A DNA stretch of 45,569 nucleotides from Promethearchaeota archaeon (GCA_016930515.1 JAFGGO010000087.1:1-45569); one strand, 5' to 3'. Counted from the stretch's first letter, positions 12,594-32,314 are shown. Notes: generated from the sequence alone by a model not told the origin. A program made the numbers and translations.

Positions 12594-14006
12594 ATGTCAG
12601 ATTTAGAGAAATTATTCAATCCAAGAGCAATTGGTATCGTTGGAGTTAATGACAAGCAATACGGGGGCGGTTATTTTTTAGATACATTGCAAAAAGGAGG
12701 ATATAAACGCCCTATCTATATATTCAACCCTCGCTTAAAGGGATCGATGCTCCTTGGTGTTGAAGTTTTAGGATCAATCATAGAAGTACCTGATACCGAA
12801 CCAATTGATTATGTTATATTAGCAGTTCCTGCTGAGCAATGCCCTACACTCTTAGAAGAGATTGGACAAAAAAAAGTACCATTTGTTACTGTTTTTACAT
12901 CGGGTTTTTCTGAAATTGGGAATGTTGATTTAGAAGTACAATTACTCGATATCGCAAGAAAATATAACATCAGATTAATTGGTCCAAATTGCATGGGTAT
13001 ATTCGTGCTCAAGAGTAAGGTTTCCATTTCGCCGTTCAATTTTCCTGGATGCGGAGATATCGGGATGATATTTCAATCGGGAGGACAATCTGTTTTTTCC
13101 GCTTTGCGTGCTCAATCAATATTCGGCGCACCCTTTAGCAAGGTAATCTCTATTGGAAACCAAATTGACCTTAACTTTGTCGATTTTCTCAAATATTTTT
13201 TAAAAGACGACGAAACAAACATCATTGGCTTATATGTTGAAAATTTAAAAAGTAAGGAAATTGGGCGAGAATTTTTTCAAATCGTGAAAAAATTATCACT
13301 TTCTAACAAACCAGTCATCATATGGAAAGTTGGTTATGGTGGGTCAGCTCAAGAAGCCATACTGTCCCACACGGGGGGTCTTGCGGGATCCATGAAGATA
13401 TGGAAAGCAATTGCGAAACAAACCGGAGCATTTCTTGTGAAAAGTTCTAGCGAATTGGTTAATCTTGCGATGAGCTTTAGCCATCTTAAAAATTTTTCGA
13501 TTAATAGAAATATGGGCGTAACTGGGATGGGTGGTGGTGTCTCAATCGAGGTTACTGACCTATTTGAACGTTACGGCTTGAAAATACCAAAAATAGAACC
13601 CAAGACGGTTGAAAAATTTAAAACATTTCTTCCTGAGGTAAACACTATCTTTAGAAATCCTCTAGATTTAGGCGGAGCGGGAGCCATTCCATCTGTGTTC
13701 TACAAAACGCTTATTACCTTAGATTCCGATCCAAATGTTTCGGCAGTAGTATTCATAAAAACATACGATTTTAACGAGGAATTTCTTCAAGCTGTTATAA
13801 GGGCGCGAGAAGAAATGAAGAAACCTTTAATCTGCGTATCCGAAAAAATTTACGATGATATGGAAGATCATGTTAATAAATTAAAATTCAAGCAGGAAAT
13901 GTTCAAAAGACAGGTTCCGATTTTCGAATCAGCTGAAGAGGCTGCAAGATCACTTCGTGCAATATGTGAATATAATGAATTCTTGATAAAGACAAGTTCT
14001 TTATAA
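12594..14006 (+). CDS. NDP-forming acyl-CoA synthetase alpha-type subunit (CoA-binding protein)
   Basis: LFNPRAIGIVG, IGPNCMG, FQSGG, SIGNQIDL, SHTG (phospho-His), NPLD. Confidence 0.9.
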   Translation: MSDLEKLFNPRAIGIVGVNDKQYGGGYFLDTLQKGGYKRPIYIFNPRLKGSMLLGVEVLGSIIEVPDTEPIDYVILAVPAEQCPTLLEEIGQKKVPFVTVFTSGFSEIGNVDLEVQLLDIARKYNIRLIGPNCMGIFVLKSKVSISPFNFPGCGDIGMIFQSGGQSVFSALRAQSIFGAPFSKVISIGNQIDLNFVDFLKYFLKDDETNIIGLYVENLKSKEIGREFFQIVKKLSLSNKPVIIWKVGYGGSAQEAILSHTGGLAGSMKIWKAIAKQTGAFLVKSSSELVNLAMSFSHLKNFSINRNMGVTGMGGGVSIEVTDLFERYGLKIPKIEPKTVEKFKTFLPEVNTIFRNPLDLGGAGAIPSVFYKTLITLDSDPNVSAVVFIKTYDFNEEFLQAVIRAREEMKKPLICVSEKIYDDMEDHVNKLKFKQEMFKRQVPIFESAEEAARSLRAICEYNEFLIKTSSL

Positions 14007-15305: not shown

Positions 15306-16739
15306 TTATATATTTCGCTTTTTACCGTAGTTATATAGCGCTATAAATGCCTGTGCTGCTCTTTTCATGCTTGGAAACACAATAAAACCGTCATTTACTA
15401 AGTTCTGATAAAATCTTGTTCTATTTTCGCTAGGATATTCTGGTAAAGTTATAATGAGAATTTTACCTAACTTTTCGATGTGTTTTTTGATTTTTAAGAT
15501 GTTTTCGTAATACCATTGAAATTCAGGATCTTGAATGTTTCTCCACGAGTCGCTTTCAATGATCACGAGGTCGATTTCGTCCGTGATCGCCGCTTTTGCG
15601 ATGTTCCTATATGCATCCGTGTAAACCATCCAGGGAAGGTCCAAGGGATTATTGAGGCTTCCCACCTTAAGTTGATGTATGTCTTGTAGTTTTTTGAGGG
15701 TTTCGCCTTCGAAATATGGTAAATCCAGTCCAGATTGAGTAATGATATCTGCAGCCAATATTCCAAAACCTCCCGACCATACAATCACGAGCACGCTTTT
15801 CCCTCGAGGGTAAATCTTGTCATTCTCTCTATTTTTAATTAATTCGTGAAACAAGTAAGTATAATCAATCATATCATCAAGCGAGGGTGGAACATCAATG
15901 GTAGGTGTCTGTTTGAAGATTGCATCCCAAATCTTGTGATCCGATACAATAGCTCCAGTATGCGTGACCGCAGCAATCTGCGAACGTTTCGTTCGACCTC
16001 CTTTCATAAATAGAACGGGCTTTTTCATGGCTTTTAAAACATGATATAATCTACGCCCCTCACGAGGGTGTAATTTGGTAAATCCTTCCAAATATACACA
16101 TATAACTTTTGTTTGAGCGTCATCGTTTAAATATTTTAAAAAATCAGATATTTGAAGGTCAAGACAATTTCCCACGCTCGCCCCTTTTGAAAACTTAAGA
16201 TCGTGTCGAGCCTCCCCAAATACAATTGTTTTTGTGTGCAAATCTCCCGATTGATATATTAAACCAATGGGTCCCGATTTGTTAGGAAAGTTAGGATTGT
16301 ACGAAACGCCCCCAGAAGGGCAATACACGCCCATACAGTTTGGGCCGAGAACTCTCGCTCCATTGCCTTCTTTTTTTATCAGATTCTTTATTTCTCTTTC
16401 AAGGTTTTCTCCAGCTTCACCTGTTTCGCCCATTCCGGCAGTAAAAATGTGAAAAAACTTAACCTTTTTTTTTGATAATATGTATTTTAGCTTTTCCACG
16501 AGTTCTTCTGTTCTTATAGCAACTATCACCAAATCGAGCTCGTTTAATGGTATGTCGTCAATAGTTTTGTAGCATTTCTGACCAAACAGTTCATCCTTTT
16601 TAGAAGTAACTAAATAAAGGTTTTCGAGATTATAGTTTTGACTCACGAGACCCGTAATGAAAAACTTGAATCTGTTACTTGCGTAGACTATTGCAACACT
16701 TCTGGGATAAAATAGAGGATCTAAAGAGTTATCGGTCAT
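15306..16739 (-). CDS. NDP-forming acyl-CoA synthetase alpha-type subunit (second paralog)
   Basis: LFYPRSVAIV, LGPNCMG, YQSG, SVGNCLDL, THTG, SGGFG, NPLD. Confidence 0.9.
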   Translation of the reverse strand: MTDNSLDPLFYPRSVAIVYASNRFKFFITGLVSQNYNLENLYLVTSKKDELFGQKCYKTIDDIPLNELDLVIVAIRTEELVEKLKYILSKKKVKFFHIFTAGMGETGEAGENLEREIKNLIKKEGNGARVLGPNCMGVYCPSGGVSYNPNFPNKSGPIGLIYQSGDLHTKTIVFGEARHDLKFSKGASVGNCLDLQISDFLKYLNDDAQTKVICVYLEGFTKLHPREGRRLYHVLKAMKKPVLFMKGGRTKRSQIAAVTHTGAIVSDHKIWDAIFKQTPTIDVPPSLDDMIDYTYLFHELIKNRENDKIYPRGKSVLVIVWSGGFGILAADIITQSGLDLPYFEGETLKKLQDIHQLKVGSLNNPLDLPWMVYTDAYRNIAKAAITDEIDLVIIESDSWRNIQDPEFQWYYENILKIKKHIEKLGKILIITLPEYPSENRTRFYQNLVNDGFIVFPSMKRAAQAFIALYNYGKKRNI

Positions 16740-18012: not shown

Positions 18013-18603
18013 TTATAATCCTTTTTTTCCAACTATTTTTTCTAAACAATTATAACAATACAAGGGTAGGGATTTGAACTCCGTTCCACAATGGGGGCAT
18101 CTATAGGTTTCCTTGAAATCGATCTTTTGAAGATCTTTTATTTGGTCTTCCTTTGATTTGAAAAATCGCTTGGTTATTTGGGGGAAGCAAGCGGACAGGA
18201 TTGAAATATAAACGCCAAGAAAAGCCGTCTTTGTAATTAGCTCTTGAGAGCGCCCGGAGTAATATAGAGGTGAATATCGGGAGAGAAACACGTAAAAGAA
18301 AAAGTTAAGCAGAATAAATAATGTCAAGACGGAGAAAAGTGCCTTTCTCGAATTTTGAAACGCAAACACGGGAATTAACAAAGCAATCGTCCAGATAAAA
18401 TACACGAAAATTAATTCTTCGGTTCCTTCAAAGAGGAAATAATTGGCTAAAAATTGAATTGCGAATTGTTGGACCGGATGGATGCCTCCGTCGAACTGAA
18501 TGGTAAAAAAGCGTCCAAAACCATAAATAAATCCGCTCAATAGGGCGAATTGACAAAGTAAGATCACAATCTTGCTTTGTGTTATCTTTCGCAAGTCGGT
18601 CAT
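18013..18603 (-). CDS. Membrane protein (~4 TM) with C-terminal zinc ribbon
   Basis: Hydrophobic segments; CPHCG...YCYNC at the C-terminus. Confidence 0.75.
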   Translation of the reverse strand: MTDLRKITQSKIVILLCQFALLSGFIYGFGRFFTIQFDGGIHPVQQFAIQFLANYFLFEGTEELIFVYFIWTIALLIPVFAFQNSRKALFSVLTLFILLNFFFYVFLSRYSPLYYSGRSQELITKTAFLGVYISILSACFPQITKRFFKSKEDQIKDLQKIDFKETYRCPHCGTEFKSLPLYCYNCLEKIVGKKGL

Positions 18604-18797
18604 ATGAGCTAGATAATATTTAAAAGATTAAATAAATAGTAGTATTTTTATCATAGAACAGTAATGACATGTATCTTTTTTTTAAATGTCATTTATCTTG
18701 AACAAACAAGAAGAAAAAAACCGGATCTAACCAGGGATAATTTAAATAGATTCAGTAAAAAAAATAATTTAATATATTTGCATGATATTTATTAACA

Positions 18798-18877
18798 TGC
18801 ATCTGGGAGGATTTGAACCTCCGTTGGCGTCTTATCGATGAAAATGCGCCGTGCTGACCAAGCTCCACTACAGATGC
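18798..18877 (-). tRNA. tRNA-like RNA with non-canonical anticodon arm (identity unassignable)
   Basis: Minus strand: acceptor GCATCTG/CAGATGC+A, TA, D arm GTG-GAGCTTGGTCAG-CAC, T arm GGAGG-TTCAAAT-CCTCC. The 28-nt middle is ~5 nt too long. TTAAATA box ~30 nt upstream. Confidence 0.75.
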
Positions 18878-18996
18878 AGTGATTATGTGAAATAATGAAA
18901 ATACGTATTTAATTCTAATAGGTGATTATTAATTTTAATACGAAGGATTTATTAAAATTCGTGTTTTGCGAGGAATTTTTTAAAAAGGAATTAACC

Positions 18997-21174
18997 ATGA
19001 ATGAAAGCTTATATCACGAAGAAAAAGAGATCTTAGAACAATTAGAGGGTGTTCTTGGAAGGAAACTCCCCCTATTGGACGAAATAAAATATAAATCGTT
19101 TGGAATACAAGTGCAACGCGGAAACATTGTTGGATTGGGATTATTTAATTCTAATCTCGATAGAATTCCTGAAATAATCGTCAATCTTCCAATGATTCAA
19201 TATTTGTGCTTAAACTCAAATAAATTAACGCAAATTCCAGAATTCATTGGTGAATTACAGAACTTAAAAGTTCTTTTTTGTGAAAAAAACAGTTTGGGTG
19301 AAATTTCCGAATTAACTATAAACGTTCTTACGAACTTGTTAAATTTAGAGGACTTGCGACTTGGTGGTAATAAGATCACATCTATTCCAACATCTATTGG
19401 GAATTTCCATTCTTTGAAAAGGTTAGATTTGGATAAAAACGGTCTCGTGGAACTTCCAACAACCCTTGGAAACATTGAAAATTTGGAGCATCTCGAGTTA
19501 GGAGGCAATCAAATACGCGTTCTCCCCGATTCGATTGGGAGATTTAAATCATTAATGTATTTAGATCTGAAAGGAAATGAACTTTCAAGACTCCCATCAG
19601 AATTCAGAAATTTGAACTCGTTGCAAACTTTAAATCTGAGTGGAAATAATTTAAAATCGATTGATATTCTATTTTCTAAATTAATTTCGCTTGTTAATTT
19701 AAATCTTAGCAAAAATGATTTAACAGGATTTCCCGATCCAATACTCTCCTTACCGTCCTTAAAAATTCTTGAGTTAAACGATAATTCTATAAAAAATATA
19801 CCAGAAAATATGACATTCTTATCAACGCTTATAAAACTCGACTTGAGTAATAATGAATTGTATAGATTGCCAGAATCCATTGGATCATTAATCTCAATCA
19901 TAGAGATAAATATCAGCGGTAATAAGATACGAAAGATTCCCGAGTCCTTCTCGTCATTATCCAAAATGGAAAAATTAAACATGAGTTACAATCGATTCAA
20001 ATCCCTTCCTAAGCACATTGGACAATTACCCTCGCTTAAATTACTCAACTTAAGAAATAATAGACTTTTTTATTTGCCCGAATCGATCGGAAACTTGAAA
20101 GCTCTTGAACGATTGGAATTATTCAGTAATTCTTTATATTCTTTACCAGAAAGTATCGGTGATCTGGTTGAACTAAATGAGTTATTTTTATATAATAATC
20201 GCTTGGAAAGCCTTCCAGATTCAATAGGAAATCTTAATAAACTCAAGATTCTAGAATTAGGAAAGAACAGGTTAATAGAGCTTCCGAGCGCTATTGGAGA
20301 TTTAAAATCTTTAATATCATTACGATTGAGTAGAAACAAGCTCAAAAACCTTCCAGAATCTATTGGTAACCTAATTTTAGTGAAAAAATTATACTTGTAT
20401 AACAATAATTTTTCGCAAATTCCGGCTTTCCTATGGCCGTTGAAAAACTTGGAAATCTTGCGCTTGCAAGGAAATCCATTAGACCCTTATTCAAAGGAAA
20501 TTTTAGAACGAGACCTGCCCTCGATTTTAGAACATTGTAGAAAACGAGCAACGATAAATGTTTTTATCAGTCATGCTATAGAAGATGCTGATGAGTATAA
20601 AGTAAGAGAATTGGTTCTATTCTTGGAAAAACAAGCCGAAATCAACAACGCGTATATTTGCGAACAAGACTTAAAGGGAAATATCGATAGATTCATGGAC
20701 GAAACGATACCTCTCTGTCAACTCTTAATCTTTATAGCAACGAGGAAATCGGTGTTTAATTCAATAGATTGCAAGCACGAAATAGAGTTGGCTAGAAATC
20801 TTGAATTACAGATAATCCCAATTAAAGGATACGACATATATTGGAATGATCTTGAACAATTAGAACTGAACAGGGAATTTGGTTTTGAATTTACCTCTGA
20901 TAAATTTCACGACTTCTGTAAGGAAATATACGATTATATTTATCAATTTAAAAGAGAGACTGATCTATTAAATAAAACTCAAAACAAGATCAACGAAAAA
21001 ATAACTAAAACACAGTCTCTAATTAAAAAAAATATAAAATCCGATATATTCACGAAAAAACTCGTTCAAAACATATTGGACATAGAAAACTTGAATATGG
21101 TTTTACAAAGAAACGAAATGTCGTTTGGGGAATATTTAATTGAAATAGGAAGAGTAATTCAGGATGATGAGTGA
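18997..21174 (+). CDS. Soluble LRR-TIR protein (~20 LRRs, TIR domain, helical tail)
   Basis: ~20 repeats of 23 aa, LxLxxNxLxxLPxSIGxL; then VFISH...LLIFIAT.KSVFNSIDCKHEIELA...IIPI (TIR with Glu). ATG at 18997 preferred to GTG at 18922. Confidence 0.9.
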   Translation: MNESLYHEEKEILEQLEGVLGRKLPLLDEIKYKSFGIQVQRGNIVGLGLFNSNLDRIPEIIVNLPMIQYLCLNSNKLTQIPEFIGELQNLKVLFCEKNSLGEISELTINVLTNLLNLEDLRLGGNKITSIPTSIGNFHSLKRLDLDKNGLVELPTTLGNIENLEHLELGGNQIRVLPDSIGRFKSLMYLDLKGNELSRLPSEFRNLNSLQTLNLSGNNLKSIDILFSKLISLVNLNLSKNDLTGFPDPILSLPSLKILELNDNSIKNIPENMTFLSTLIKLDLSNNELYRLPESIGSLISIIEINISGNKIRKIPESFSSLSKMEKLNMSYNRFKSLPKHIGQLPSLKLLNLRNNRLFYLPESIGNLKALERLELFSNSLYSLPESIGDLVELNELFLYNNRLESLPDSIGNLNKLKILELGKNRLIELPSAIGDLKSLISLRLSRNKLKNLPESIGNLILVKKLYLYNNNFSQIPAFLWPLKNLEILRLQGNPLDPYSKEILERDLPSILEHCRKRATINVFISHAIEDADEYKVRELVLFLEKQAEINNAYICEQDLKGNIDRFMDETIPLCQLLIFIATRKSVFNSIDCKHEIELARNLELQIIPIKGYDIYWNDLEQLELNREFGFEFTSDKFHDFCKEIYDYIYQFKRETDLLNKTQNKINEKITKTQSLIKKNIKSDIFTKKLVQNILDIENLNMVLQRNEMSFGEYLIEIGRVIQDDE

Positions 21175-21300
21175 GAACATGCGTTTTTTTTTATAATATT
21201 CTTCGTTTATGAATTGAAACCTCTAAACCGCAAAATTTTTTCTTGAAACCTCGTTATTATTAACCGCGCAATAAGGTGCGAGCATGTATCGGTTATCGAT

Positions 21301-21423
21301 AATTTTTTTTCGCTCCGATTCCGCACACGCATGATCAATAATCGCCTTCATCATGGTTCGCCCATCTGACAAGCGTGAAGGAGGATCCACTGAACATCCC
21401 GCTCCTACAAGAAGCGTCAATCT
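21301..21423 (-). pseudogene. Truncated paralogous copy of the SIR2 N-terminus
   Basis: 123-bp diverged copy of 23015-23137 (LLVGAGCSVDPPSRLSDGRTMMKAIIDHACAESERKKI), then unrelated sequence. Confidence 0.85.
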
Positions 21424-23188
21424 AATTCTTCATTTGCTCCTCTAAAGTATCGATTTTATCTTGGACTATTTCAACCAGAGGTGCATTAAGTTCTTTAAAT
21501 AATGCCAGGGCATCCCTAAAATATTGTAAAGACTCACCCAATTGCCCTTTTTCTTCCAATAATGCCCCCATATTTTTTAATATAAAAGCCTTGTCTCTCA
21601 GGTCGCCTAATTGATCCTCAATCGCTAGTGCTTCCTTATAGTTTTGTAATGCCTCATCTAGTTGACCTTTTCCATGCAATATTTGTCCGATATTGTTTAG
21701 TTGCGTGGCTTTGCCACTCAAGTCGCCTAATTGTTCAAAAATGGTTAAAGCTTCCCTAAAGTGTTGTGATGCCTCATCCAGTTGTTTTTTTCCATGCAAT
21801 AATAGATATCCAATATTATTCAATCGCGTGGCCTTGCCTCTCAAGTCATCTAATTGCTCATCGATGGTCAAGGCATCCCTATAATATAATAATGCTTCGT
21901 CCAGTTGACCTATTCCATATAATAGTGAACCGATGTTGCTTAATGGTGAAGCCTTGCTTTTCAAATCACCTAGTTGCTCGTAAATGGCTAAAGCCTCCCT
22001 ATAGTACTGCAACGCCTCATCTGCATGCCCTTTTCTATGCATTAGTAATCCAATGTTGTGAAGAGAATTTGCTTTCCATTTTAAATTGTTTTTTTTTTCA
22101 GCAAGTTCAAGGATCATTTGAGAACAATACATTGCATCCTCAATCATACTAAAACCAAAATAAATATTGAAAGGTATGATATATTTTTGAAATTCATCAG
22201 GAGGGGGGAGGTTAGTTTCAATCCACCTTGATGCAACCATCATTGAATTAGTTGAGCTCAGATCTGGTTCGCAATCAATAAACTCTCGAAGCAAGTGCGT
22301 TGTATTACCGTCCACCCTATATACATGCTCTACATTATTCATCTGATAGAGATCATTGAGAATTTGAGTTACTTTATCTAAATCCTTACGTCCTGTTAAA
22401 ATAGACTCATTTAGTTCTTGAATTTGTATTGGGCTTTCTTCATTTTTCACATGATTGATCCACACTATATCTTTCAAATCTTTTAATATTTTAAGAGTTG
22501 GGATGATATCAAAATCATCGCTTCCCGAATAGCCCATCACGACCAATGTTCGATTTCTTGAAATGCTTTCAAATAAAGGGCGCTTAAATGGCTCCACTTG
22601 AAAGACGCTCTCTCCTTCTTTCCCAGAACCAAATGCTTGAATAGTTGCAATCAAAGAATCTCTTGTAGACACCCCCATAATGATATTTTTCGTAGAACCG
22701 TGAATTTTATAAATGGGCTTTTTTCCCATTTGTATTAACTTATCAGGATCATGATATTTTTCAAAATCTTCTCTTGTAATTACAGGAATTATATCTTCTT
22801 TATGAACGCTAGATTTTAATAACGCGTATTCAATTAAAAAATCAAAATTTGTTGTCATTACGTTTTGACCTTTCTTGATCATGTTTGCCAAGAAAAAATG
22901 TTGTATATTTGGAGATTCACATTCTCCATAATAATCAATGAGTTTTAATTCAGGGTCAAACTGGTCCCTGACGCTCTCAACTAATTGTTCAAATCGGAGA
23001 TTTTTTAAACCTAGAATTTTTTCTCGTTCAGATTCCGCACACGCATGATCAATGATAGCTTTCATCATGGTTCGCCCATCTGCCAAGCGTGAAGGAGGAT
23101 CCACTGAACATCCCGCTCCTACAAGGAACATTAATCTTGCATCATCAGCAAATAAATCTTTAATGGTTAGACTAGTAGATTTTATCAT
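21422..23188 (-). CDS. SIR2-like domain plus TPR repeat protein
   Basis: FLVGAGCS, TTNFD, KIHGS, GYSGSDDFD; five ~40-aa TPR units at the C-terminus. Confidence 0.9.
   Translation of the reverse strand: MIKSTSLTIKDLFADDARLMFLVGAGCSVDPPSRLADGRTMMKAIIDHACAESEREKILGLKNLRFEQLVESVRDQFDPELKLIDYYGECESPNIQHFFLANMIKKGQNVMTTNFDFLIEYALLKSSVHKEDIIPVITREDFEKYHDPDKLIQMGKKPIYKIHGSTKNIIMGVSTRDSLIATIQAFGSGKEGESVFQVEPFKRPLFESISRNRTLVVMGYSGSDDFDIIPTLKILKDLKDIVWINHVKNEESPIQIQELNESILTGRKDLDKVTQILNDLYQMNNVEHVYRVDGNTTHLLREFIDCEPDLSSTNSMMVASRWIETNLPPPDEFQKYIIPFNIYFGFSMIEDAMYCSQMILELAEKKNNLKWKANSLHNIGLLMHRKGHADEALQYYREALAIYEQLGDLKSKASPLSNIGSLLYGIGQLDEALLYYRDALTIDEQLDDLRGKATRLNNIGYLLLHGKKQLDEASQHFREALTIFEQLGDLSGKATQLNNIGQILHGKGQLDEALQNYKEALAIEDQLGDLRDKAFILKNMGALLEEKGQLGESLQYFRDALALFKELNAPLVEIVQDKIDTLEEQMKN
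21480..22075 (-). repeat. ~120-bp tandem coding repeats (TPR units)
   Basis: Recurrent A..L.NIG..L..KGQLDEAL..Y.EAL.I.EQLGDL..K, visible at DNA level; boundaries approximate. Confidence 0.8.
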
Positions 23189-23427
23189 CTATTCACCTAA
23201 AAATAGACCTTTTTATTTTCTCATGATTTACCTATTATATTAGAAATATACTAGAAATATATTAAGCTAAGTTATATTAAAATTATTACTTAGAATATTA
23301 CATTCTCGATCAAACATCAAGCATTTATCCATCATTTAGATTATTCATATAACATGAAGTGCTGGAGTAGCTTTAAAAATGTGATAATATTTTTATTGAA
23401 ACAAATGTTAGGAAGACTTCGTTTTTA

Positions 23428-23870
23428 TTAACCTCGAAACCATTCAAATCCATTTTTAACTTTTTCTAAATAGTACGACTTCAAATCTAAGATAGTGTCT
23501 AATAATAATAAACGACAAGCAATTATCTTACTTGCTTCTAGAGATTTCTCCAAGGCAATCCTAATCATGGTCGCTCCTAATTTTTTACCTTTATACTCAT
23601 TATCAATACCCAAGCGTCCTAAAAGTACTATTGGAATTTGTCCATTCCAAATATGCTTGCATCTCCTGTGTTTAATTGGGATGCGGAAAGCGTAAAAAAA
23701 GCAATAATTTCTTTAGTATCTTTCAAATAGAACACATAGGTCCTTGATAATTTTCGCTCTTGATTACTAAATGCACAATTTTTCAAGAAATAATTAATAT
23801 CATCATCTCCACAATCAAAATGATTAATAACCATCTCTTTACTTAATTCTTTAAATACTAAATCCGTCAA
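23428..23870 (-). pseudogene. GNAT acetyltransferase toxin (AtaT/TacT-like), frameshifted near 23638
   Basis: FDCGDDDINYFLK...RTYV...IIAFFTL in one frame; IPIVLLGRLGID.EYKGKKLG in the next. One extra A in GACAAATTCCA restores a single ORF. Confidence 0.8.
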
Positions 23871-23882
23871 TAAAAAAATCTT

Positions 23883-24128
23883 TTATAATTTTTCAATTTC
23901 TTCTAAAGAAATGATAAAATCATTTTTTATCAATCTTTTAAAGAAATCATAAGAAGATTTAAAAAAAGAACGAGTTACTTTATCAATTTTTGTATTATCA
24001 AGTTTTTCTTCAAGATCTCTTGCCTCTTGCTCAGTTAATACAATCTCTTCTGAATCATCAAAAAAGAGGTTTTCTTTAAGTATTTTTCCGTTTTTCTTAG
24101 CTTCCTCGTCTCTTGATGTGGTCATCAT
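23883..24128 (-). CDS. Small protein, putative antitoxin
   Basis: 81 aa immediately upstream of the GNAT; IVLTEQEARDLEEKLDN resembles the C-terminal helix of DUF1778-type antitoxins; no clear RHH. Confidence 0.5.
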   Translation of the reverse strand: MMTTSRDEEAKKNGKILKENLFFDDSEEIVLTEQEARDLEEKLDNTKIDKVTRSFFKSSYDFFKRLIKNDFIISLEEIEKL

Positions 24129-24261
24129 AATGTATATGGAATTATTACTTTTAATTATTTTTGATGTCTAAAATTTATGGAGTGATAATAATTGAATGAA
24201 TGATTGAGTTAATGAATAAAAAAAGTAATTCTAGAGAAGTTATATTCATTAAATAGAATTC

Positions 24262-24645
24262 CTTCTTGAGCGAGATAAGCGCTTCGGGACGCTCGAAATC
24301 CTGACAACGAAAGGGCCTGACCCGAGCGGAGGAAGGCTCAAAGGGGCTCGATCGACTTGACGATGGTTGGATCGAACCCGTCCTCGTGCATTCCTTTCGT
24401 CCCCTCTCCGCCCCACCCATCATTTGTCGTCTGGCCTTCCCTTCGGTTCGAAACCGAAAAATTTTTATCCTTCGCCTCACTATTCCCCATTATCGTGCAA
24501 GCTACCTTTTTCCCTTTTGTCGTTTTTTGCCCGCAAGAAGGTGCTCCCAAACCCGCAAGACACACGGGACCGGCAAGAACAGCGGCCGAAAGGACGACTG
24601 AAGGGACGAACGAGAACGAAGGCGATTGCTTTCGCCTTTCAAGCT
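24262..24645. ncRNA. GC-rich structured non-coding element (candidate ncRNA or leader)
   Basis: Hand counts of 26-38 GC per 60 nt versus AT-rich flanks; several hairpins and nested long-range complementarity; only implausible ORFs. Confidence 0.45.
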
Positions 24646-24658
24646 TTAAATTTTACAA

Positions 24659-24679
24659 TTTAAATAATATATATTTAAA
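24659..24679. promoter_or_regulatory. Back-to-back TATA-like boxes upstream of rpoA'
   Basis: TTTAAATA on + (24659-24666) and on - (24672-24679). Confidence 0.4.
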
Positions 24680-24731
24680 ATTTCAAGATCAAGCTTCAAG
24701 ATCAGTACACATTAACGAGAGTGCGTGAATC

Positions 24732-27698
24732 GTGAGTTACACATTTAGTAGAACAAAACTGGTAGAAAAAATAAAGTTCGGACTACTCAGCCCGAACGAG
24801 ATAAGAAAGATGTCGGCGGCCAGGATCATAACGGCCGATACTTACGACGAGGACGGCCTGCCCATTCCGTCGGGCCTCATGGACCAGCGCCTTGGCACCA
24901 TCGAACCGGGACAACGCTGTAGCACGTGCGGAAATTTGGTAAGTAATTGCATGGGCCACTTCGGCCACATCGAGCTGGCCCGGCCTGTGATACATGTTGG
25001 CTACGCCAAAAAGGTCCTAAAAGTCCTTCGGTCCATTTGTCCCGAGTGCTCGAGACTAATGCTTTCGGACGACGAAAAAGAGGCGTTTCGAGAGGAGATT
25101 AAAAAACAAATACAAACTTCCGTTGAAAGCGACGAGGACGCTACAAAAATCATTTTCAAAAGGGCTCGCAAGAGCAAGAACTGTCCGTTCTGCGGCGCTT
25201 CCAAGAAAAAGATCGTGATTGAAAAACCCACCACCTTCTACGAGGAAGAGGAAGGGAGAGGCTCTCGTAGGATTACGCCTATCGAGATCATCGAACGCCT
25301 CAAAAAGATGAACGATTCCGACCTCAGGTTTTTAGGCATTCAACCCGAAAACGCTCGACTCGAGTGGGTCATTTTCACTGTCTTGCCCATACCTCCCGTG
25401 TGCGCTCGACCTTCGATTACCTTGGACAGTGGCATCCGTTCGGAAGACGACTTGACTCACAAGCTCGTGGATGTCATTAGGATTAACCAACGATTGAGAG
25501 AAAACATCGATGCTGGAGCGCCTCACTTGATCGTGGAAGATTTATGGGAGTTATTACAATATCACATCACGACTTACTTTGATAATCAAGTTTCGGGAAT
25601 TCCCCCCGCCCGCCATCGCTCTGGAAGGGCACTCAGGACGCTTACTCAAAGGCTCAAGGGAAAAGAAGGGCGATTCAGGAGCAATTTAAGTGGAAAACGG
25701 GTCGATTTCTCGGCCCGAAGCGTCATTTCCCCTAATCCTTATATTAGCATTAACGAAGTTGGAGTTCCTATCGAGATCGCAAAGATCCTTACCATTCCAA
25801 CCAATGTAAACGATTGGAACATCGAAGAGATGAAACAATTGGTCATAAACGGACCTAACATCCACCCCGGTGCTAATTACATCATAAGAAACGACCGGCG
25901 AAGGATTGACCTTCGATACGTCAAGAACAGAAAGATCATTGCAGACATGATCAATCCGGGATTTACTGTTGAAAGGCATTTGAGCAACGGAGACTTGGTT
26001 TTGTTTAATAGGCAACCTTCGCTCCATCGAATGTCCATCATGGCGCACGAAGTTAAAATCATGGACGGCAGGACTTTCAGATTGAATCTTACAGTCTGCC
26101 CTCCCTACAACGCCGATTTCGACGGGGACGAGATGAATCTGCACGTGCCCCAGAGCGAGGAAGCTCGAACCGAAGCGGAATTATTGCTTAAAGTTCAAGA
26201 GCACATTTTATCTCCGAGGTTTGGAGGTCCCATACTTGGAGGCATTCAAGACTTTATATCGCACGTGTTTCAATTCACGAGCAAAAATTCGGTTTACAAC
26301 CTAAAAGACGCAATGAAACTTCTTTACATGGGGGGCGTGTTTCGTGACAATCCCGATTTCAAGTTCGAAAGCCTGAAACCTGTTATAACAGATCCTGAAC
26401 CGATGTATTCTGGAAAACAAATTTTTAGCGCCTTATTCCCCGACGATCTCAACATTCGAGTACGTTCAAAGTTCTGCAAGAAATGCTACTTGAAAGAAAA
26501 TGGAAAGTGCAAGGAACTCGATTGCGAATACGACGCTTACGTGAATATAAGAAACGGAGAGCTCATCACGGGTACCATCGATGAGAACTCGTTCGGCGCA
26601 ATGCAATCCAATAGCATCCTCCAGAGAATCATTAAAGATCACGGAAATGCTCGAGGGCGCCAATTCTTGGACGATGCAACCAAGATGCTTCTTTACGTTA
26701 TTAGACAGAACGGCATGACCATGGGGTTAGACGAAGTACATGTTCAAGGAAAGGCGTACGAGGCAATTCAAAACATTTTACACGGCGCAAATATTGAGGC
26801 GGATAAACTCATCAATGCTTTTTACGATAACGACACGAATATTCTCAAGCGCGCTCCTGGTCGATCGATGCGAGAAACATTAGAACTCCGATTGAGACAA
26901 GGACTGGCAGAAGCGAGAAAGAACGCAGAAGAAACCGCAGCCTTTTTTATTGGAGATAAGGCTCACTCGGTTATCATGACTAAATCGGGTGCTCGTGGTA
27001 ATATCCTAAACCTCGGACAAATGTCTGCCGTGGTAGGACAACAAGCCATCAGGGGCGAACGAATCAACAGGGGCTACAGCCTGAGAACGTTACCTCATTT
27101 CAAGGTGAACGATCTCACTCCTAAAGCGAGAGGTTTCGTAGAATCGTCGTATCGAAACGGATTGAAACCTGCCGAATTCTTTTTCCACGCTATGGGTGGT
27201 AGGGAAGGATTGGTAGACACTGCGGTGCGTACCAGTACTTCTGGATACATGCAACGTCGTTTAGTCAACGCGCTTCAAGACATGGTGATAGAAAACGACG
27301 GCACGGTGCGTAATTCGGATAAGAATATCATCCAATTCAAGTTTGGAGACGATGGGATTGATGTCATGCACACCGACCACGGTCACGCCGTAAACCTCGA
27401 TGTATTGCTGTTAAAAGCGAAGGCTTTAGATGTTGGTTCGATCCGAGAAGAACTCAAGAAGGACGAAACTACAAGGAAAAGCACTCCCAAGAAAAAAGAG
27501 TCCCCTCCAAAAGAATCTAAACCAACTTCTGCAAGTAAAAAGGCCGAGGAAAAGAAGCCTGTTGAGGAAAAAGCACCAACGACGGATGAAGAGTCCTTAC
27601 ATGCCGAATTTGAAAAGGAAACAGGCAAGAACGCAATCTGGCGCGGTAAAGAAACCAAGGCCTACCAAGATTGGAAAGCGGAAAAGCTTGGAAGTTAG
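24732..27698 (+). CDS. rpoA1: DNA-directed RNA polymerase subunit A' (Rpo1N) with C-terminal extension
   Basis: CxGHFGHIEL, GKRVDFSAR, NRQPSLH, catalytic NADFDGD, GGREGLVDTAVRT. Confidence 0.98.
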   Translation: MSYTFSRTKLVEKIKFGLLSPNEIRKMSAARIITADTYDEDGLPIPSGLMDQRLGTIEPGQRCSTCGNLVSNCMGHFGHIELARPVIHVGYAKKVLKVLRSICPECSRLMLSDDEKEAFREEIKKQIQTSVESDEDATKIIFKRARKSKNCPFCGASKKKIVIEKPTTFYEEEEGRGSRRITPIEIIERLKKMNDSDLRFLGIQPENARLEWVIFTVLPIPPVCARPSITLDSGIRSEDDLTHKLVDVIRINQRLRENIDAGAPHLIVEDLWELLQYHITTYFDNQVSGIPPARHRSGRALRTLTQRLKGKEGRFRSNLSGKRVDFSARSVISPNPYISINEVGVPIEIAKILTIPTNVNDWNIEEMKQLVINGPNIHPGANYIIRNDRRRIDLRYVKNRKIIADMINPGFTVERHLSNGDLVLFNRQPSLHRMSIMAHEVKIMDGRTFRLNLTVCPPYNADFDGDEMNLHVPQSEEARTEAELLLKVQEHILSPRFGGPILGGIQDFISHVFQFTSKNSVYNLKDAMKLLYMGGVFRDNPDFKFESLKPVITDPEPMYSGKQIFSALFPDDLNIRVRSKFCKKCYLKENGKCKELDCEYDAYVNIRNGELITGTIDENSFGAMQSNSILQRIIKDHGNARGRQFLDDATKMLLYVIRQNGMTMGLDEVHVQGKAYEAIQNILHGANIEADKLINAFYDNDTNILKRAPGRSMRETLELRLRQGLAEARKNAEETAAFFIGDKAHSVIMTKSGARGNILNLGQMSAVVGQQAIRGERINRGYSLRTLPHFKVNDLTPKARGFVESSYRNGLKPAEFFFHAMGGREGLVDTAVRTSTSGYMQRRLVNALQDMVIENDGTVRNSDKNIIQFKFGDDGIDVMHTDHGHAVNLDVLLLKAKALDVGSIREELKKDETTRKSTPKKKESPPKESKPTSASKKAEEKKPVEEKAPTTDEESLHAEFEKETGKNAIWRGKETKAYQDWKAEKLGS

Positions 27699-27802
27699 AG
27701 CCTAAGTTTCAAAAAATAAAGAAATATTTATTTCTTTTTCACTTTTTAGAATTATTATACGGATATATTTATTGATATATCGCCAGTCAAATTGAGGATT
27801 GA

Positions 27803-28231
27803 TTGCTGATGTACGAAAAAGAAACGCTTGTTGATAAACTAAAAAATCTCGGCTATTTTGATGATGAAAACGAACTCGAAGTCGTCTTCACATTGGAGGA
27901 ATATTTCGAAAACCATCCTAAGGATGACGAATATTGCATCATTAGCGTGAACGTGTATCCAGATCCTCCTAAAACGGACGATTTTTACCAGACAATGCTT
28001 GACATTCGCAACATGGAAGAAGTACAAGATGTGCTGGTTAGAATAATGGACCATGATAGCCAAGATTGGTTCGTATCAGATACCGTATTAATCCTCACGA
28101 AATTGTCAGTTGGCAAGGTAAAAGAAATCACGAAACACCTTGAACCAGACGTCGAACTTGGTTGGTGGGGTTTAAACGATGCCGTAAATTTTCCTCCAAT
28201 ACAGGAAGGGATGAGTGTAATCTCCCTATAG
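27803..28231 (+). CDS. Acidic hypothetical protein, possibly C-terminally truncated
   Basis: 142-aa acidic ORF; ends ISL followed by TAG TAG GAT. Confidence 0.6.
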   Translation: MLMYEKETLVDKLKNLGYFDDENELEVVFTLEEYFENHPKDDEYCIISVNVYPDPPKTDDFYQTMLDIRNMEEVQDVLVRIMDHDSQDWFVSDTVLILTKLSVGKVKEITKHLEPDVELGWWGLNDAVNFPPIQEGMSVISL

Positions 28232-28510
28232 TAGGATAAATTTTTCTTCTTTTTCCTTCCTATAAATTAATCAAGAAATATGATTTAAATCGCATCAAAA
28301 CCATTATTATCTAACTATCCAATAAATTCTAAGTAATATATATAAAAATGAAAAAAAAAAATTGGACCAATAAACAATTACAATAAGGTGCTTAAAACAA
28401 TTTTTACACATTCTCTTATGAGCAAGAGTCAGCAGGGATTGTTCTCCTAAAGAATTATCAAAATTAGTTCTAAATTACATTAAAAATTTAGGTAATAAAG
28501 AGGAAAAAGC

Positions 28511-29512
28511 ATGAGCCATAAGGAATTTAAAATCAACGATTACATCACGCTTAAATTGGAAAATGACAATACGATAATATATGTAGACGAAAAACCGTTT
28601 ACTCAATGCAATGACTTGAGGCTGGTTTTCCACTTCGATCAAGAACGTAAACTAATGCATGAAGAGATAGAATCAATTGATGAGATTGTTGGAAATTTTA
28701 GAATGCCTTGCGGAAGAACAACTTTTAATGGTGGAAAGATTGAATATTCTTCAATTGAAGCATTTTGGGGGCATTGTTCTAATTTACAAGTATGGGCGGA
28801 GCATGATTACGACACGCGCCTTCTCACATTTGGCTTGTCTTTTCCCTTGTTGGAACGGTTAATCGGATCGGGGGATAAATTGGCTAAAAGCATGTTCAAG
28901 GACGAAATCGTCAAAAGAATGCGTGGAAAAAATCAAATTGTCATTTCATATTTGATTAAGAACGATTATTTAAAGTATTTTACCGAATCCGAACTCGAAG
29001 CGAGGTTTCCAGAGTGGGAATTCGTTGAGATTTACTCAAAAAGAATACCCGTAATAAACGGTGTATTAAACTTAAGCAACAAGGGAATTAATAGTATTGA
29101 AGAAATCAAAAACCTTGGGAATCTCACTTCTATTTGCAAATTAGATTTACACTCAAATAACCTCAAAGAACATTTGAGTTCAATAGGTAATTTGAATTCA
29201 CTTCGGAATCTTGACCTATCTTTTAATCAATTAAACAACATTCCTAATTCAATATGTAACCTAAAATCGCTTGAAATACTATCCTTGATCCATAACAATC
29301 TTAAAAGCCTTCCAGAATCTATAGGAAACCTTACTTCACTCCAAAAGATAGATCTCCGCCATAATCACATAACGCATATTCCCAAGAGTATTGAAATGCT
29401 CAATAAATTACGAGAATTAAACTTGGTGAACAATCCCGTTTCGAAAAAGGATATAGATAGATCCTTATTAAAGCACTTTAAAACAATAGGAACAGATATT
29501 TTTTTCAATTAA
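28511..29512 (+). CDS. LRR protein with Lokiarchaeia-type N-terminal domain
   Basis: EFKINDYITLKLE...FWGHCSNLQVWAEHDYDTRLL N-terminal region plus ~6 LRRs; GAGG SD. Confidence 0.85.
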   Translation: MSHKEFKINDYITLKLENDNTIIYVDEKPFTQCNDLRLVFHFDQERKLMHEEIESIDEIVGNFRMPCGRTTFNGGKIEYSSIEAFWGHCSNLQVWAEHDYDTRLLTFGLSFPLLERLIGSGDKLAKSMFKDEIVKRMRGKNQIVISYLIKNDYLKYFTESELEARFPEWEFVEIYSKRIPVINGVLNLSNKGINSIEEIKNLGNLTSICKLDLHSNNLKEHLSSIGNLNSLRNLDLSFNQLNNIPNSICNLKSLEILSLIHNNLKSLPESIGNLTSLQKIDLRHNHITHIPKSIEMLNKLRELNLVNNPVSKKDIDRSLLKHFKTIGTDIFFN

Positions 29513-29771
29513 AAATAACATAACCCAGACAGATCAGAAAATAGCTGAGAAAGTCAATAGAATTGAATCCACGGCAACTAGCATTGAAAGCATCACGGAA
29601 TCCATTAATTTAGCTTCAAAACACTCGAAAGAGGATGTAGATCAACTTTCTGAGATTAACACGGCAACCGAGGAGCAGACAGCGTCAATGCAGGAAGTAT
29701 CCTCGACCGCCATAAAACTAGGAACGCTTGCAGAAGACTTAAAGCAAACCTTAATACGAAAAATGAAATAG
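29511..29771 (+). pseudogene. Orphan C-terminal fragment of a methyl-accepting chemotaxis-like protein
   Basis: Unannotated frame KNNITQTDQKIAEKVNRIES...TEEQTASMQEVSSTAIKLGTLAEDLK...KMK*, paralogous to 30671-30931; no start codon at its 5' end. Confidence 0.85.
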
Positions 29772-29965
29772 TGCCGCTTTAATGCAAGAGCTACCTCTAA
29801 CTTCATTTCAATTTGAGATCCCCCATTGAGGAGCTGAAATAGGTATTATTAATCAAACAGCTAAATAAAAATAAAATTTAACTAATATCACAATTGAAAA
29901 ATTTAAATAAAAATTCCAATATCATAGATATAATTAACATAAATGTTAAAAAATGAAGGAAAATT

Positions 29966-30931
29966 ATGCTAAATCAGGTATTAGGAACTGCATCCTTAGA
30001 ATTTGCTCTCTCCTTAGTATTTATTGTTTTTACAGTTATTCCAATTATTATTAAATACTATTATAAGATAGATGCGAGATCAACTGAATTTAAGGTTCTC
30101 GTCATGTTTGTGGTATCCGTTGTAGTTTTATTAGTTTTAGTCATTATAACAACTATGGGTTTTGATGCTGATTTCATTGTTGTTTTTTGTTTGGTTCCTC
30201 CCGCAGTAATTGTCATAATATATACTTTAATTTATATTTTAAAAAAAATTCGAAGTCAAGAAGATTCGTTAAAATCGCAACAATCAGCCCTTCAAAACAT
30301 AATTAAAAGCGCAGAAAGCGTTGCCCTAAATGTTGCGGGAATGGCTTCCGAATTGGCTTCAAGCGCCAGCGAGGTAAATTCTTCAGCAGAAGAAATAAAT
30401 ATGATCACGCAGAATGGCCAAGAAACATCTCAGTACTTGATGAACTTGCTCAATCAAATTAATGAAATGGCAGGGCTGGTAAGAACAGTTTCGAGCGAAA
30501 TGAGGCTGTCTACTAAAGACATTAATAAAATTATGACCATACTCGTGAGTCTTTCGGAACAAACGAACTTACTAGCGCTTAACGCAAGCATCGAAGCTGG
30601 TAGGGCGGGAGATTATGGGCGTGGTTTTGCGGTGGTAGCGGAAGAAGTAAGGAAATTGGCGGAACAATCGAAGAATAACATAACTTAAACCGACCAAAAA
30701 ATCACAGAAATCGTGAATCGAATCGAATCAACGGTGTCTTACATTGAAAACATTACCGAATCAATCAATCTTGCTTCTCTAAGCTCGAAGGAAAATGTAG
30801 ACCAACTTGTTGAAATTAATACGGCAACCGAACAACAAACCGCATCAATGCAGGAAGTATCTTCGACTGCTTCCCGATTAGGCACGCTTGCCGAAGAATT
30901 GAAAGAAGTACTAGTACAGAAAATGAAATAA
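29966..30931 (+). pseudogene. Membrane methyl-accepting chemotaxis-like protein interrupted by in-frame TAA (30686-30688)
   Basis: 3 TM segments; [34 protein letters not shown]; the downstream ORF at 30713 is in the same frame. Confidence 0.85.
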
Positions 30932-31114
30932 TTCCCTCTTTTTTTACTTATATAATTCAGATCTTGTAGTAGAAACCAAAAAATATTTATTTTTTACGAT
31001 ACTAATTTCTATAACGTGAAACATTTATTGATTTATTTCATTCTATATTCTACTTGTTATAATAATAATTACGATATAACGATTTTCAATACAATTTCAG
31101 AGGTATAAAATACT

Positions 31115-32314
31115 TTGGCGAAAGTTACTCCTAAAATGTTGGAAGAATCCTTAAAAGAATTGCAAGAAGATGGCATTCCAGAAGACTTAATTGAAAAGAT
31201 TAGCGAGAAGTTAAAAGGCGAAGAACTAGAAGAAGAACAGCTCGAATACTTTTTGAATAAAGTATACATCAACTTTAACAACGCCGTGGAAGAACCTGGT
31301 GAACCCTGTGGAACCATCGCAGCACAATCTATTGGAGAGCCAGGTACTCAAATGACGCTCCGTACCTTCCACTACGCGGGAGTCGAGGAGTTCTCTGTCA
31401 CGCAAGGCCTCCCGAGGCTGATAGAAATCGTGGACGCTCGACGCTTTCCCAGCACTCCGATGATGGAAATTCATCTTGAAAAAGGATATTGCGAAACCGA
31501 AGAAAAAGCGATTAAAGTTCACAACAGGATCGAACAAATCAGGATCGAACAAATAACTCACGATGTAGATCTTGATTTTGTCAATTGGAATATCATCATC
31601 AATTTAATCCCTGAAATATGCGAGAGAAAAGGCATAGACATCGACGAGATTCCAGAAGTTTTAAAACGATACAAGAAAAAAGGTTCGATTACGAGAGAAG
31701 GAAACTCAATCATTATCGATCCTGGCATTGAAGATCTCCAGAGCTTACAAAAATTACGAGAAAAAATCTTAAAGAAGGTTGTAAAAGGAATACGAGGCGT
31801 TAAGCGTGGATTGCTCACTCCAGTCGATAGTGGAAAGGAATGGGTCATTAAAACCGAAGGTACTAACATGCAAGGAGTCGTTCAAATTGAAGGTGTTGAC
31901 GCTTCAAGGACGGTGTCCAATCACATTCACGAGGTCGAAAAATTATTTGGTATTGAAGCCGCAAGATCAATGATCATTGTTGAAGCACAAAAAGTTCTCG
32001 AACAACAAGGCTTAGATGTGGACTTGCGCCACCTACTCATCTTAGCGGATCTCATGTGTCATTCTGGAACCATTCAGTCCATTGGAAGGCACGGTATTTC
32101 GGGTTCTAAATCAAGCGTATTCGCAAGAGCAGCTTTCGAAGTAACTGTCAATCAATTACTTGACGCTGGACTTTACGGAGAAGAAGAAAAATTACTTGGA
32201 ATTCCCGAAAATGTCATAATCGGTCAAGTTGCAAAGATTGGTACGGGCTCCGTTCAGGTCATGTTTGACCTCGATGCGAACTTGAAGATTTTAAACGAAA
32301 AAAAGCAATTATAA
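31115..32314 (+). CDS. rpoA2: DNA-directed RNA polymerase subunit A'' (Rpo1C)
   Basis: AAQSIGEPGTQMTLRTFH, VTQGLPRLIEI, ARAAFE, ENVIIGQ..KIGTG. Confidence 0.98.
   Translation: MAKVTPKMLEESLKELQEDGIPEDLIEKISEKLKGEELEEEQLEYFLNKVYINFNNAVEEPGEPCGTIAAQSIGEPGTQMTLRTFHYAGVEEFSVTQGLPRLIEIVDARRFPSTPMMEIHLEKGYCETEEKAIKVHNRIEQIRIEQITHDVDLDFVNWNIIINLIPEICERKGIDIDEIPEVLKRYKKKGSITREGNSIIIDPGIEDLQSLQKLREKILKKVVKGIRGVKRGLLTPVDSGKEWVIKTEGTNMQGVVQIEGVDASRTVSNHIHEVEKLFGIEAARSMIIVEAQKVLEQQGLDVDLRHLLILADLMCHSGTIQSIGRHGISGSKSSVFARAAFEVTVNQLLDAGLYGEEEKLLGIPENVIIGQVAKIGTGSVQVMFDLDANLKILNEKKQL

Follow-up and report, generated by a model that had tools for sequence, protein, structure and literature searches.

The DNA analyzed here, called the window, is a stretch of 45,569 nucleotides from a Promethearchaeota archaeon (GCA_016930515.1 JAFGGO010000087.1:1-45569), and corresponds to contig C139 of an Asgard assembly of 4.0 Mb in 190 contigs that is 94% complete. 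Near its middle lie two genes that each join a repeat domain to a putative NAD-cleaving enzyme (NADase): a leucine-rich repeat (LRR)-TIR gene on the plus strand (gene A, 18997-21174) and a SIR2-tetratricopeptide repeat (TPR) gene on the minus strand (gene B, 21422-23188). The two are transcribed toward each other, and 247 nt separate the stop codons. The best reading is that they are neighbors only because both lie in one small genome-specific segment; that they form a two-gene module is not supported.

Gene A encodes 725 amino acids (aa) from the ATG at 18997, and its reading frame opens upstream of this codon at a GTG (18922). The open reading frame (ORF), its translation and matches to Pfam LRR families (LRR_14, 1e-52; LRR_8, 3e-46) identify the first part of the product as a solenoid of 20 leucine-rich repeats, counted with a regular expression, which recur with a period of 23 residues between positions 19126 and 20520. 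A TIR domain (20551-20958) directly abuts the LRR cap and is followed by a C-terminal tail of ~70 residues of helices (20989-21162; helices at residues 156-218 of the structural model). The protein has no Walker A motif, no P-loop and no match to an NTPase family in Pfam. It also has neither a membrane segment nor a signal peptide (maximum 19-residue hydropathy 1.19), and for this reason is expected to be soluble and cytoplasmic.

It took a fold search to reveal the TIR domain; a sequence search of the PDB with the TIR alignment profile was discarded, as it returned coiled-coil noise from the tail only. Structures were compared by Foldseek and VIA-align (Z scores) on AlphaFold models. The model of TIR plus tail was built on 18 homologs and has a predicted local distance difference test (pLDDT) value of 83.5. 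Its best Foldseek matches are SARM1 TIR domains (probability 1.00), and VIA-align gives Z scores of 15.9 for SPARTA TIR-APAZ (root-mean-square deviation, rmsd, 2.5 Å over 129 residues), 15.4 for SARM1, 15.1 for Hydra TRR-2, 14.8 for AbTir, 13.9 for RUN1 and 13.1 for ThsB. On the model, the middle domain of gene A is a flavodoxin-like TIR fold despite its sub-threshold Pfam score, and the Pfam TIR_2 family (PF13676) is present in several homologs of gene A in precomputed annotation.

The codon at 20779-20781 encodes a glutamate inside the motif S-x-D-C-x-x-E, 14 residues past strand C, that is invariant in 18/18 aligned sequences. Among the matches of the TIR model are E-to-A mutant structures of SARM1 (E642) and RUN1 (E100). 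These two residues are the catalytic glutamates of their proteins, and the equivalence of the gene A residue, in helix C, rests on the secondary-structure register. By this register the gene A glutamate appears to occupy the position of the catalytic glutamate in NADase-type TIR domains, and the NADase activity of gene A is putative.

When two copies of TIR plus tail are predicted as a complex, the score is 0.63 against 0.00 for the best control. Of proteins solved as same-chain pairs, 20 of 30 attain this score, and of those solved as single chains, 1 of 23 does. The predicted dimer is a symmetric helical bundle of the tails (interface residues 161-218, pLDDT 82), with at least 91% of contacts shared between runs. 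The models support dimerization of the tail without proving it.

Gene B encodes 588 aa, and its ORF, translation and Pfam matches place a SIR2 domain at the N terminus (22256-23188) and five TPR units of 40-41 residues after it (21449-22144; TPR_12, 1e-32). The units are apparent in the repeat listing of the protein and, in the DNA, as a 120-nt tandem repeat of 3.6 copies. The SIR2 domain scores 39.8 bits with Pfam SIR2_2 (PF13289, 'SIRim'; cut-off 24.5) and carries the motifs GAGCS (24-28), TTNFD (112-116), HGS (163-165) and GYSGSDD (219-225). In an alignment of 42 sequences G24, A25, G26, S28, T112, N114, F115, D116, H163, G164, G219, Y220, G222 and D224 are invariant; these include Asn114 (22847-22849), Asp116 (22841-22843) and His163 (22700-22702). 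The sequence profile pairs TTNFD/HGS of gene B with TTNYD/HGS of the SIR2/HerA enzyme. The AlphaFold model of the domain has a pLDDT of 86.4 and a predicted template modeling (pTM) score of 0.88. It is closest to SPARSA (Z 19.2), ThsA (16.9), KomC (16.8), DSR2 (16.4), SIR2-HerA (14.0) and Avs5 (14.0), with lower scores for FAM118B (12.9) and the housekeeping SIRT3 (~12.5). By model and motifs, the SIR2 domain of gene B is of the defense type, nearest to the antiviral SIR2 NADases, with its NAD pocket and its Asn, Asp and His intact; its activity is putative.

The Pfam scan of gene B yields SIR2_2 and TPR-type families only, with no SLOG, Macro or NTPase match. No Walker A motif or P-loop is found in the protein, and there is no membrane segment (maximum 19-residue hydropathy 1.0). 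Compared with its nearest relative, the TPR arm is 52% identical and the SIR2 enzyme 68%, which indicates that the arm diverges faster. Fast arm divergence, variable repeat number and DNA-level similarity of the repeats fit a ligand-binding, fast-evolving sensor. The initial annotation of this DNA had described the two proteins in the same terms: neighboring convergent genes, 20 LRRs with a TIR domain and its catalytic glutamate at 20779-20781, a SIR2 domain with GAG.S/TTNFD/HGS/GYS motifs and five TPRs, and no NTPase or transmembrane domain in either product. The ORFs, repeat counts, fold matches and invariant residues bear this out.

The neighborhoods of the two gene families argue against a link between genes A and B. 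The homologs come from Promethearchaeota, which bears out the Asgard origin of the window, and carriers of the TIR-tail family include Promethearchaeum syntrophicum MK-D1. The genome of the window itself holds 10 TIR-domain frames, seven of them close to the TIR-plus-tail module, and eight SIR2-domain frames; the other nine TIR and seven SIR2 frames are on different contigs, each alone among unrelated genes. The closest relatives of gene B (68%, 59% and 59% identity) have no TIR neighbor. A SIR2 gene of the gene B family is present at none of 78 TIR-tail loci, sampled across Asgard lineages with a single genome for each species and searched over 1.19 Mb of flanks. A second TIR-tail gene stands in tandem at 19 of these loci, ~2.4 kb apart and on the same strand (L077-L099 and others). 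The converse search covered 80 metagenomic SIR2-TPR loci (554 kb), queried with a TIR profile that draws on nine architectures; a TIR frame occurs in four, directly adjacent in none, and no neighbor family occurs in more than eight of the 80. A six-locus cluster of neighbors of SIR2-TPR genes was tried as a TIR-LRR family and rejected, as only L128 has a TIR domain and the other five are plain LRR.

Linkage and copy numbers were also counted in 60 related genomes besides the assembly itself. Eight of the 40 relatives that bear SIR2-TPR genes have no TIR detected by either the TIR-tail protein or the Pfam TIR_2 query, several of these genomes being 92-99% complete. Across genomes, the presence of one family goes only weakly with that of the other (odds ratio 3, P = 0.10, with no correction for kinship). 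Because there is no recurrent neighbor, no SIR2 gene near the 78 TIR loci and the paralogs are scattered, genes A and B are considered to stand alone. The initial annotation had proposed a TIR-to-SIR2 signaling module in which the TPRs replace SLOG, and as an alternative two independent pattern receptors. The module fails on adjacency, which is conserved neither in the genome itself nor in its relatives, nor at the 78 TIR or 80 SIR2-TPR loci; the linkage data favor the alternative. The caveats raised there, convergent orientation and families expanded in the lineage, both hold.

What the two genes do share is their location. They lie in a segment of ~6.1 kb (18604-24731) between a Zn-ribbon gene (18013-18603) and rpoA' (24732-27698). 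In G001, G003 and G004, which belong to the same genus, and in G006, a member of the same family, 200-430 bp separate the homolog of the Zn-ribbon gene from rpoA'. The order in G003 (CoA ligase, 186-aa gene, Zn-ribbon gene, rpoA') matches that of the window minus the segment. Since the Zn-ribbon homolog nearly abuts rpoA' in the relatives, the segment is specific to this genome. The order within it is tRNA-Lys, LRR-TIR, SIR2 remnant, SIR2-TPR, a two-gene cassette and a GC-rich stretch.

The remnant of a second SIR2 gene (21295-21426, minus strand; codons ~17-60) sits right after the stop codon of gene B and has 84% aa identity to gene B residues 17-60. In the DNA, 21301-21423 is a 123-nt direct repeat of 23015-23137 (gene B codons 18-58), and the two are 91% identical.

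The cassette resembles a toxin-antitoxin pair. Its first gene, in the antitoxin position, encodes 81 aa (23883-24128, minus strand) and its second, in the toxin position, is broken (23428-23870, minus strand) into two frames, one of 80 codons (23628-23870) and one of 61 (23428-23613). Intact homologs of the second gene encode 167-168 aa, and in three relatives the two genes stand side by side at five other places. The larger protein scores 21.1 bits with the GNAT family in one homolog and 18.9 in another, the Pfam cut-off being 20.7. At E <= 1, Pfam and NCBIfam give no credible family for the window frames between 23428 and 24480, the only listed match being NisI (E 0.049), and PADLOC finds nothing in the intact homologs of the pair. 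Judged by sequence, with the GNAT match at threshold, the cassette could belong to the GNAT/RHH class of toxin-antitoxin pairs. It is like the type II systems TacAT, AtaRT and KacAT in its small first gene, GNAT-like second gene of ~167 aa, tight spacing and patchy, multicopy occurrence; it is unlike them in that the first gene of the window pair is without a family match and the toxin-position gene is split here. The earlier claim of gene debris thus proved correct, the debris being the SIR2 copy beside gene B, and a variable-island context is supported, the segment being missing at the syntenic site of the three same-genus relatives. The claim of an adjacent toxin-antitoxin pair stands for a conserved two-gene cassette, not for an intact pair in the window, where the second gene is broken.

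At the left edge of the segment is a tRNA-Lys(UUU) gene of 82 nt (18797-18878, minus strand), identified by ARAGORN and by Rfam (RF00005, 42.8 bits). No tRNA is present at the syntenic loci of G001, G003, G004 and G006. ARAGORN finds 12 tRNA genes in the whole 4.0 Mb assembly, and this is the only tRNA-Lys among them; many tRNAs of the assembly are probably intron-bearing or unassembled. The segment was considered as a classical integrative element, which is unsupported because the repeats of 18600-24800 include no attachment-site-like copy of the tRNA end and the segment has no integrase. The stretch upstream of rpoA' (24150-24700) is GC-rich (~0.44) and has no Pfam-matching frame. A DNA search with it in 20 relatives gave only matches of 33-45 nt and no homolog, and Rfam at E <= 1 gave nothing on 23200-24760.

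Beyond the segment, the assembly has no second copy of rpoA', and rpoA'' is located at 31115-32314. The two are parted by a 3.4-kb insertion (27699-31114) with three genes, which encode a 142-aa protein of unknown type, an LRR protein of 333 aa (28511-29512) and a protein of 240 aa that has an MCP signaling domain (29966-30688); in G001, G006, G007 and G008 rpoA'' directly follows rpoA'. The gene rpoB is not upstream of rpoA' in this family, and the Zn-ribbon gene takes that place in four relatives. On the other side, 12594-14006 and 15306-16739 encode, on opposite strands, paralogous CoA-ligase proteins with a flavodoxin domain of the succinyl-CoA-ligase type.

Both families are large and vary from genome to genome. 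A SIR2 domain is found in 40 of the 60 relatives and the TIR-tail module in 25; in a count over 61 genomes, copy numbers run from 0 to 13 per genome. Homolog searches returned 622 SIR2-TPR hits, and 467 TIR-tail cluster representatives at E <= 1e-10, of which 200 are at E <= 1e-30. In these 200 the TIR-tail cassette is nearly always C-terminal, and it is fused to LRRs, to LRRs with a Roc/Ras GTPase domain, to LVIVD propeller repeats or to a NosD-type beta-helix (alternative fusions are at L169:2-2383, L165:405-3206, P0003/P0005/P0007 and P0013). Protein length ranges from ~590 to 1370 aa with the number of repeats. One metagenome protein of 771 aa (P0080) has SIR2_2, TPR and LRR together in the precomputed Pfam list. 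The variable copy number, tandem duplicates, fragments and repeat-number variation of both families are dynamics typical of conflict genes.

These data are on balance best explained by two autonomous single-chain proteins, each a repeat sensor with an NAD-cleaving enzyme, that belong to different expanded Asgard families and share one variable segment; this is the probable interpretation. In its favor, both domains retain their catalytic residues, which do not vary among homologs, and the nearest solved folds are those of antiviral NADases. The NADase activity, ligand sensing and antiviral role of both proteins are inferred.

The two proteins could act as follows. In the LRR-TIR protein, the tail would hold two chains together, and once the LRRs bind a foreign or aberrant protein, the TIR domains would rearrange or cluster into a composite active site. 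TIR NADases need a composite active site, and it is on this ground that activation on clustering is proposed. NAD+ would then be cleaved, and either depleted or made into an ADP-ribose-derived product. DSR2 has an N-terminal SIR2 NADase whose activity is suppressed by the helical repeat arm at the C terminus and switched on when a viral protein binds to this arm. The SIR2-TPR protein may work in a DSR2-like manner, its repeat arm keeping the enzyme off until a viral protein is bound; after this trigger NAD+ would be depleted and the infected cell would stall.

Several observations weigh against this interpretation. The immune role is putative, being reasoned from comparison. Pfam TIR_2 gives gene A 25.2 bits against a cut-off of 28. 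PADLOC returns only weak, domain-level matches for genes A and B (TPR models best, then Aga_SIR2 at ~4e-6). Neighbors of both families are mostly housekeeping genes, such as those for ferredoxin, enoyl-CoA hydratase and a tRNA-editing protein. The genome has 36 similar LRR frames and 12 similar TPR frames, which indicates a general LRR/TPR expansion, and together with the housekeeping neighbors this makes a regulatory, non-immune role possible. Two further points, the frequency with which TIR and SIR2-TPR genes lie close together in relatives and one operon-like row of such genes, are taken up below.

A non-immune function in signaling or regulation is an unlikely explanation. The repeats would then scaffold host proteins, the SIR2 domain would be a deacylase or an ADP-ribosyltransferase and the TIR domain an adaptor or a metabolic NAD hydrolase, and both genes would belong to the large LRR/TPR/GTPase signaling repertoire of Asgard archaea. 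The great abundance of both families and the character of their neighbors are compatible with such a function, as are the Roc/Ras GTPase domains of some TIR-tail relatives. PADLOC calls no known defense system at the locus; the initial annotation had anticipated no hit if the module was novel. The SIR2 fold points the other way, being nearer to antiviral NADases (Z 14-19) than to deacylating sirtuins (~12.5), and so do the patchy distribution, variable copy number, pseudogene fragments and strain-specific locus. The shuffling of an enzyme with variable sensors is also typical of conflict systems.

Coupling of the two proteins in the manner of Thoeris is less probable still. It would have the LRR-TIR protein sense infection and make an ADP-ribose-derived signal, which the TPR arm would perceive so as to free NAD+ depletion by SIR2, either in cis here or in a genome-wide network of TIR sensors that feed SIR2-TPR effectors. 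TIR and SIR2 are the signaling and effector pair of type I Thoeris, which speaks for such coupling. For the perception of a signal by TPRs there is a precedent, as the TPR-bearing Thoeris effector ThsI is proposed to perceive cyclic ADP-ribose (cADPR) via its TPR domain (bioRxiv 10.64898/2025.12.03.692087). Asgard viruses have Tad2-like and anti-NAD-depletion genes, yet no complete Thoeris system has been called in their hosts (PMC13700489). Such viral genes, which favor coupling, fit an uncharted NAD-based defense in Asgard hosts.

The proximity data bear on the same question. When pairs of TIR and SIR2-TPR genes no more than ~6 kb apart are counted in the 60 relatives, leaving out the window itself, there are seven in five loci against at most 3.4 expected under random placement. 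The genes are co-directional in G003:C255, convergent with an N-terminal TIR in G020:C25 and divergent in G006:C9; in G006:C47 a SIR2-TPR gene is flanked by two giant TIR proteins. In G042:C17 (L202, 1-4221) genes for a membrane Nudix protein, a 249-aa TIR protein and a SIR2-TPR protein form an operon-like row on a single strand, separated by 231 and 50 bp. This row and the recurrence of proximity count for coupling and against independence. The TIR partners differ in architecture, orientation and sequence, and the five loci are therefore not orthologous copies of one module. The approximately twofold excess is no more than expected if both families share variable regions. The 249-aa TIR of G042:C17 has no ortholog above 47% identity in the 60 relatives, so its arrangement is a single case in the sample; it keeps a coupled TIR/SIR2 reading alive at low odds. 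Against coupling stand the 0 of 78 TIR loci with SIR2 and the 4 of 80 SIR2-TPR loci with a TIR frame, none of them adjacent, as well as the eight relatives without detectable TIR and the weak phyletic association. The genes in the window are moreover convergent, gene B matches neither SLOG nor Macro in Pfam, and its closest relatives are without a TIR neighbor.

The Nudix component of this row is found more widely. Several Asgard loci (L202, which is G042:C17, L089, L092, L095, L097, L128 and L169) have, next to TIR genes, a gene for a protein of ~575 aa that combines membrane-like segments with a NUDIX domain at its C terminus (PADLOC PDC-S07, 2e-15). The row of Nudix, TIR and SIR2-TPR genes looks like a candidate module for NAD-derived signaling.

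Non-functional leftovers in a degrading inserted segment, as the SIR2 fragment and the broken toxin-like gene might indicate, are a very improbable account of genes A and B, since both long ORFs are uninterrupted, their catalytic motifs are intact and their models fold with high confidence.

Two autonomous receptors thus remain the preferred interpretation of the locus. A broader proposal is more tentative and, as it stands, rather doubtful: Asgard archaea may have a large, diversifying repertoire of NTPase-less innate immune receptors made of one chain each, composed of SIR2-TPR proteins and of TIR-tail cassettes on interchangeable sensors, the soluble LRR-TIR protein of gene A among them. 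In some genomes these receptors would be wired with membrane Nudix and SIR2-TPR proteins into NAD-derived signaling. If true, archaea of the lineage nearest to eukaryotes would have their own, as yet undescribed, equivalent of Thoeris and of TLR/TNL-type immunity.

The SIR2-TPR and LRR-TIR families are large and undescribed. Two surveys of Asgard defense do not mention SIR2, LRR or TPR proteins and name neither family (PMC11291487, PMC13700489), and a survey of SIRim describes eukaryotic SIR2-NACHT-TPR proteins and not an archaeal SIR2-TPR family (bioRxiv 10.1101/2024.09.18.613514). As the families are unnamed in surveys and uncalled by PADLOC, the current census may miss a large share of the Asgard defense repertoire.

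Among known systems, type I Thoeris is similar to the locus in that a TIR domain stands beside a SIR2 domain, both with intact catalytic sites and with matching folds (ThsA, Z 16.9; ThsB, Z 13.1). The locus departs from it in several respects: gene B has no Pfam match to SLOG or Macro, the two genes converge, relatives do not conserve their linkage, and the TIR domain is fused to 20 LRRs, unlike the small ThsB. The lesson of the locus is that adjacent 'Thoeris-like' domains in a genome with expanded families are no evidence of a system. NLR and STAND proteins, such as plant TNLs and the SIR2-STAND protein Avs5 (SIR2 Z 14.0), likewise join an effector NADase to a repeat sensor. Genes A and B are unlike them in having no central NTPase switch (NACHT or NB-ARC), which sets both proteins apart from the NLRs.

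The best matches of the gene A TIR domain are SARM1, SPARTA TIR-APAZ, AbTir and plant TIR NADases (Z 15.9-13.9), which by the secondary-structure register have the glutamate at the equivalent place in helix C. Identity to these is 13-21%, and their partner domains are different (ARM-SAM, APAZ-Ago and NB-ARC). The order of an LRR solenoid and a TIR domain is that of Toll-like receptors and of Hydra TRR-2 (Z 15.1). Unlike Toll-like receptors, gene A has no signal peptide or membrane segment, keeps the NADase glutamate and has an extra tail that is predicted to dimerize; the shared LRR-TIR architecture may be convergent. Gene B is most like DSR2 and DSR1 (PDB 8wyb, 8wkt), which have an N-terminal defense SIR2 domain with Asn and His and a helical repeat arm, and which stand alone without an NTPase. 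Its SIR2 domain aligns with that of DSR2 with an rmsd of 3.5 Å over 239 residues (Z 16.4) at 16-17% identity. The sensor of gene B consists of five 40-aa TPR units and not of a MID and CTD solenoid, and the host is archaeal; gene B has no match to a PADLOC DSR model and by sequence falls outside the DSR families. Should both proteins turn out to act as immune receptors, the prokaryotes most closely related to eukaryotes would employ LRR-TIR and SIR2-repeat proteins that have no NTPase switch, an architecture intermediate between the bacterial single-gene NADases of the DSR2 type and the Toll-like and TIR-NLR receptors of eukaryotes.

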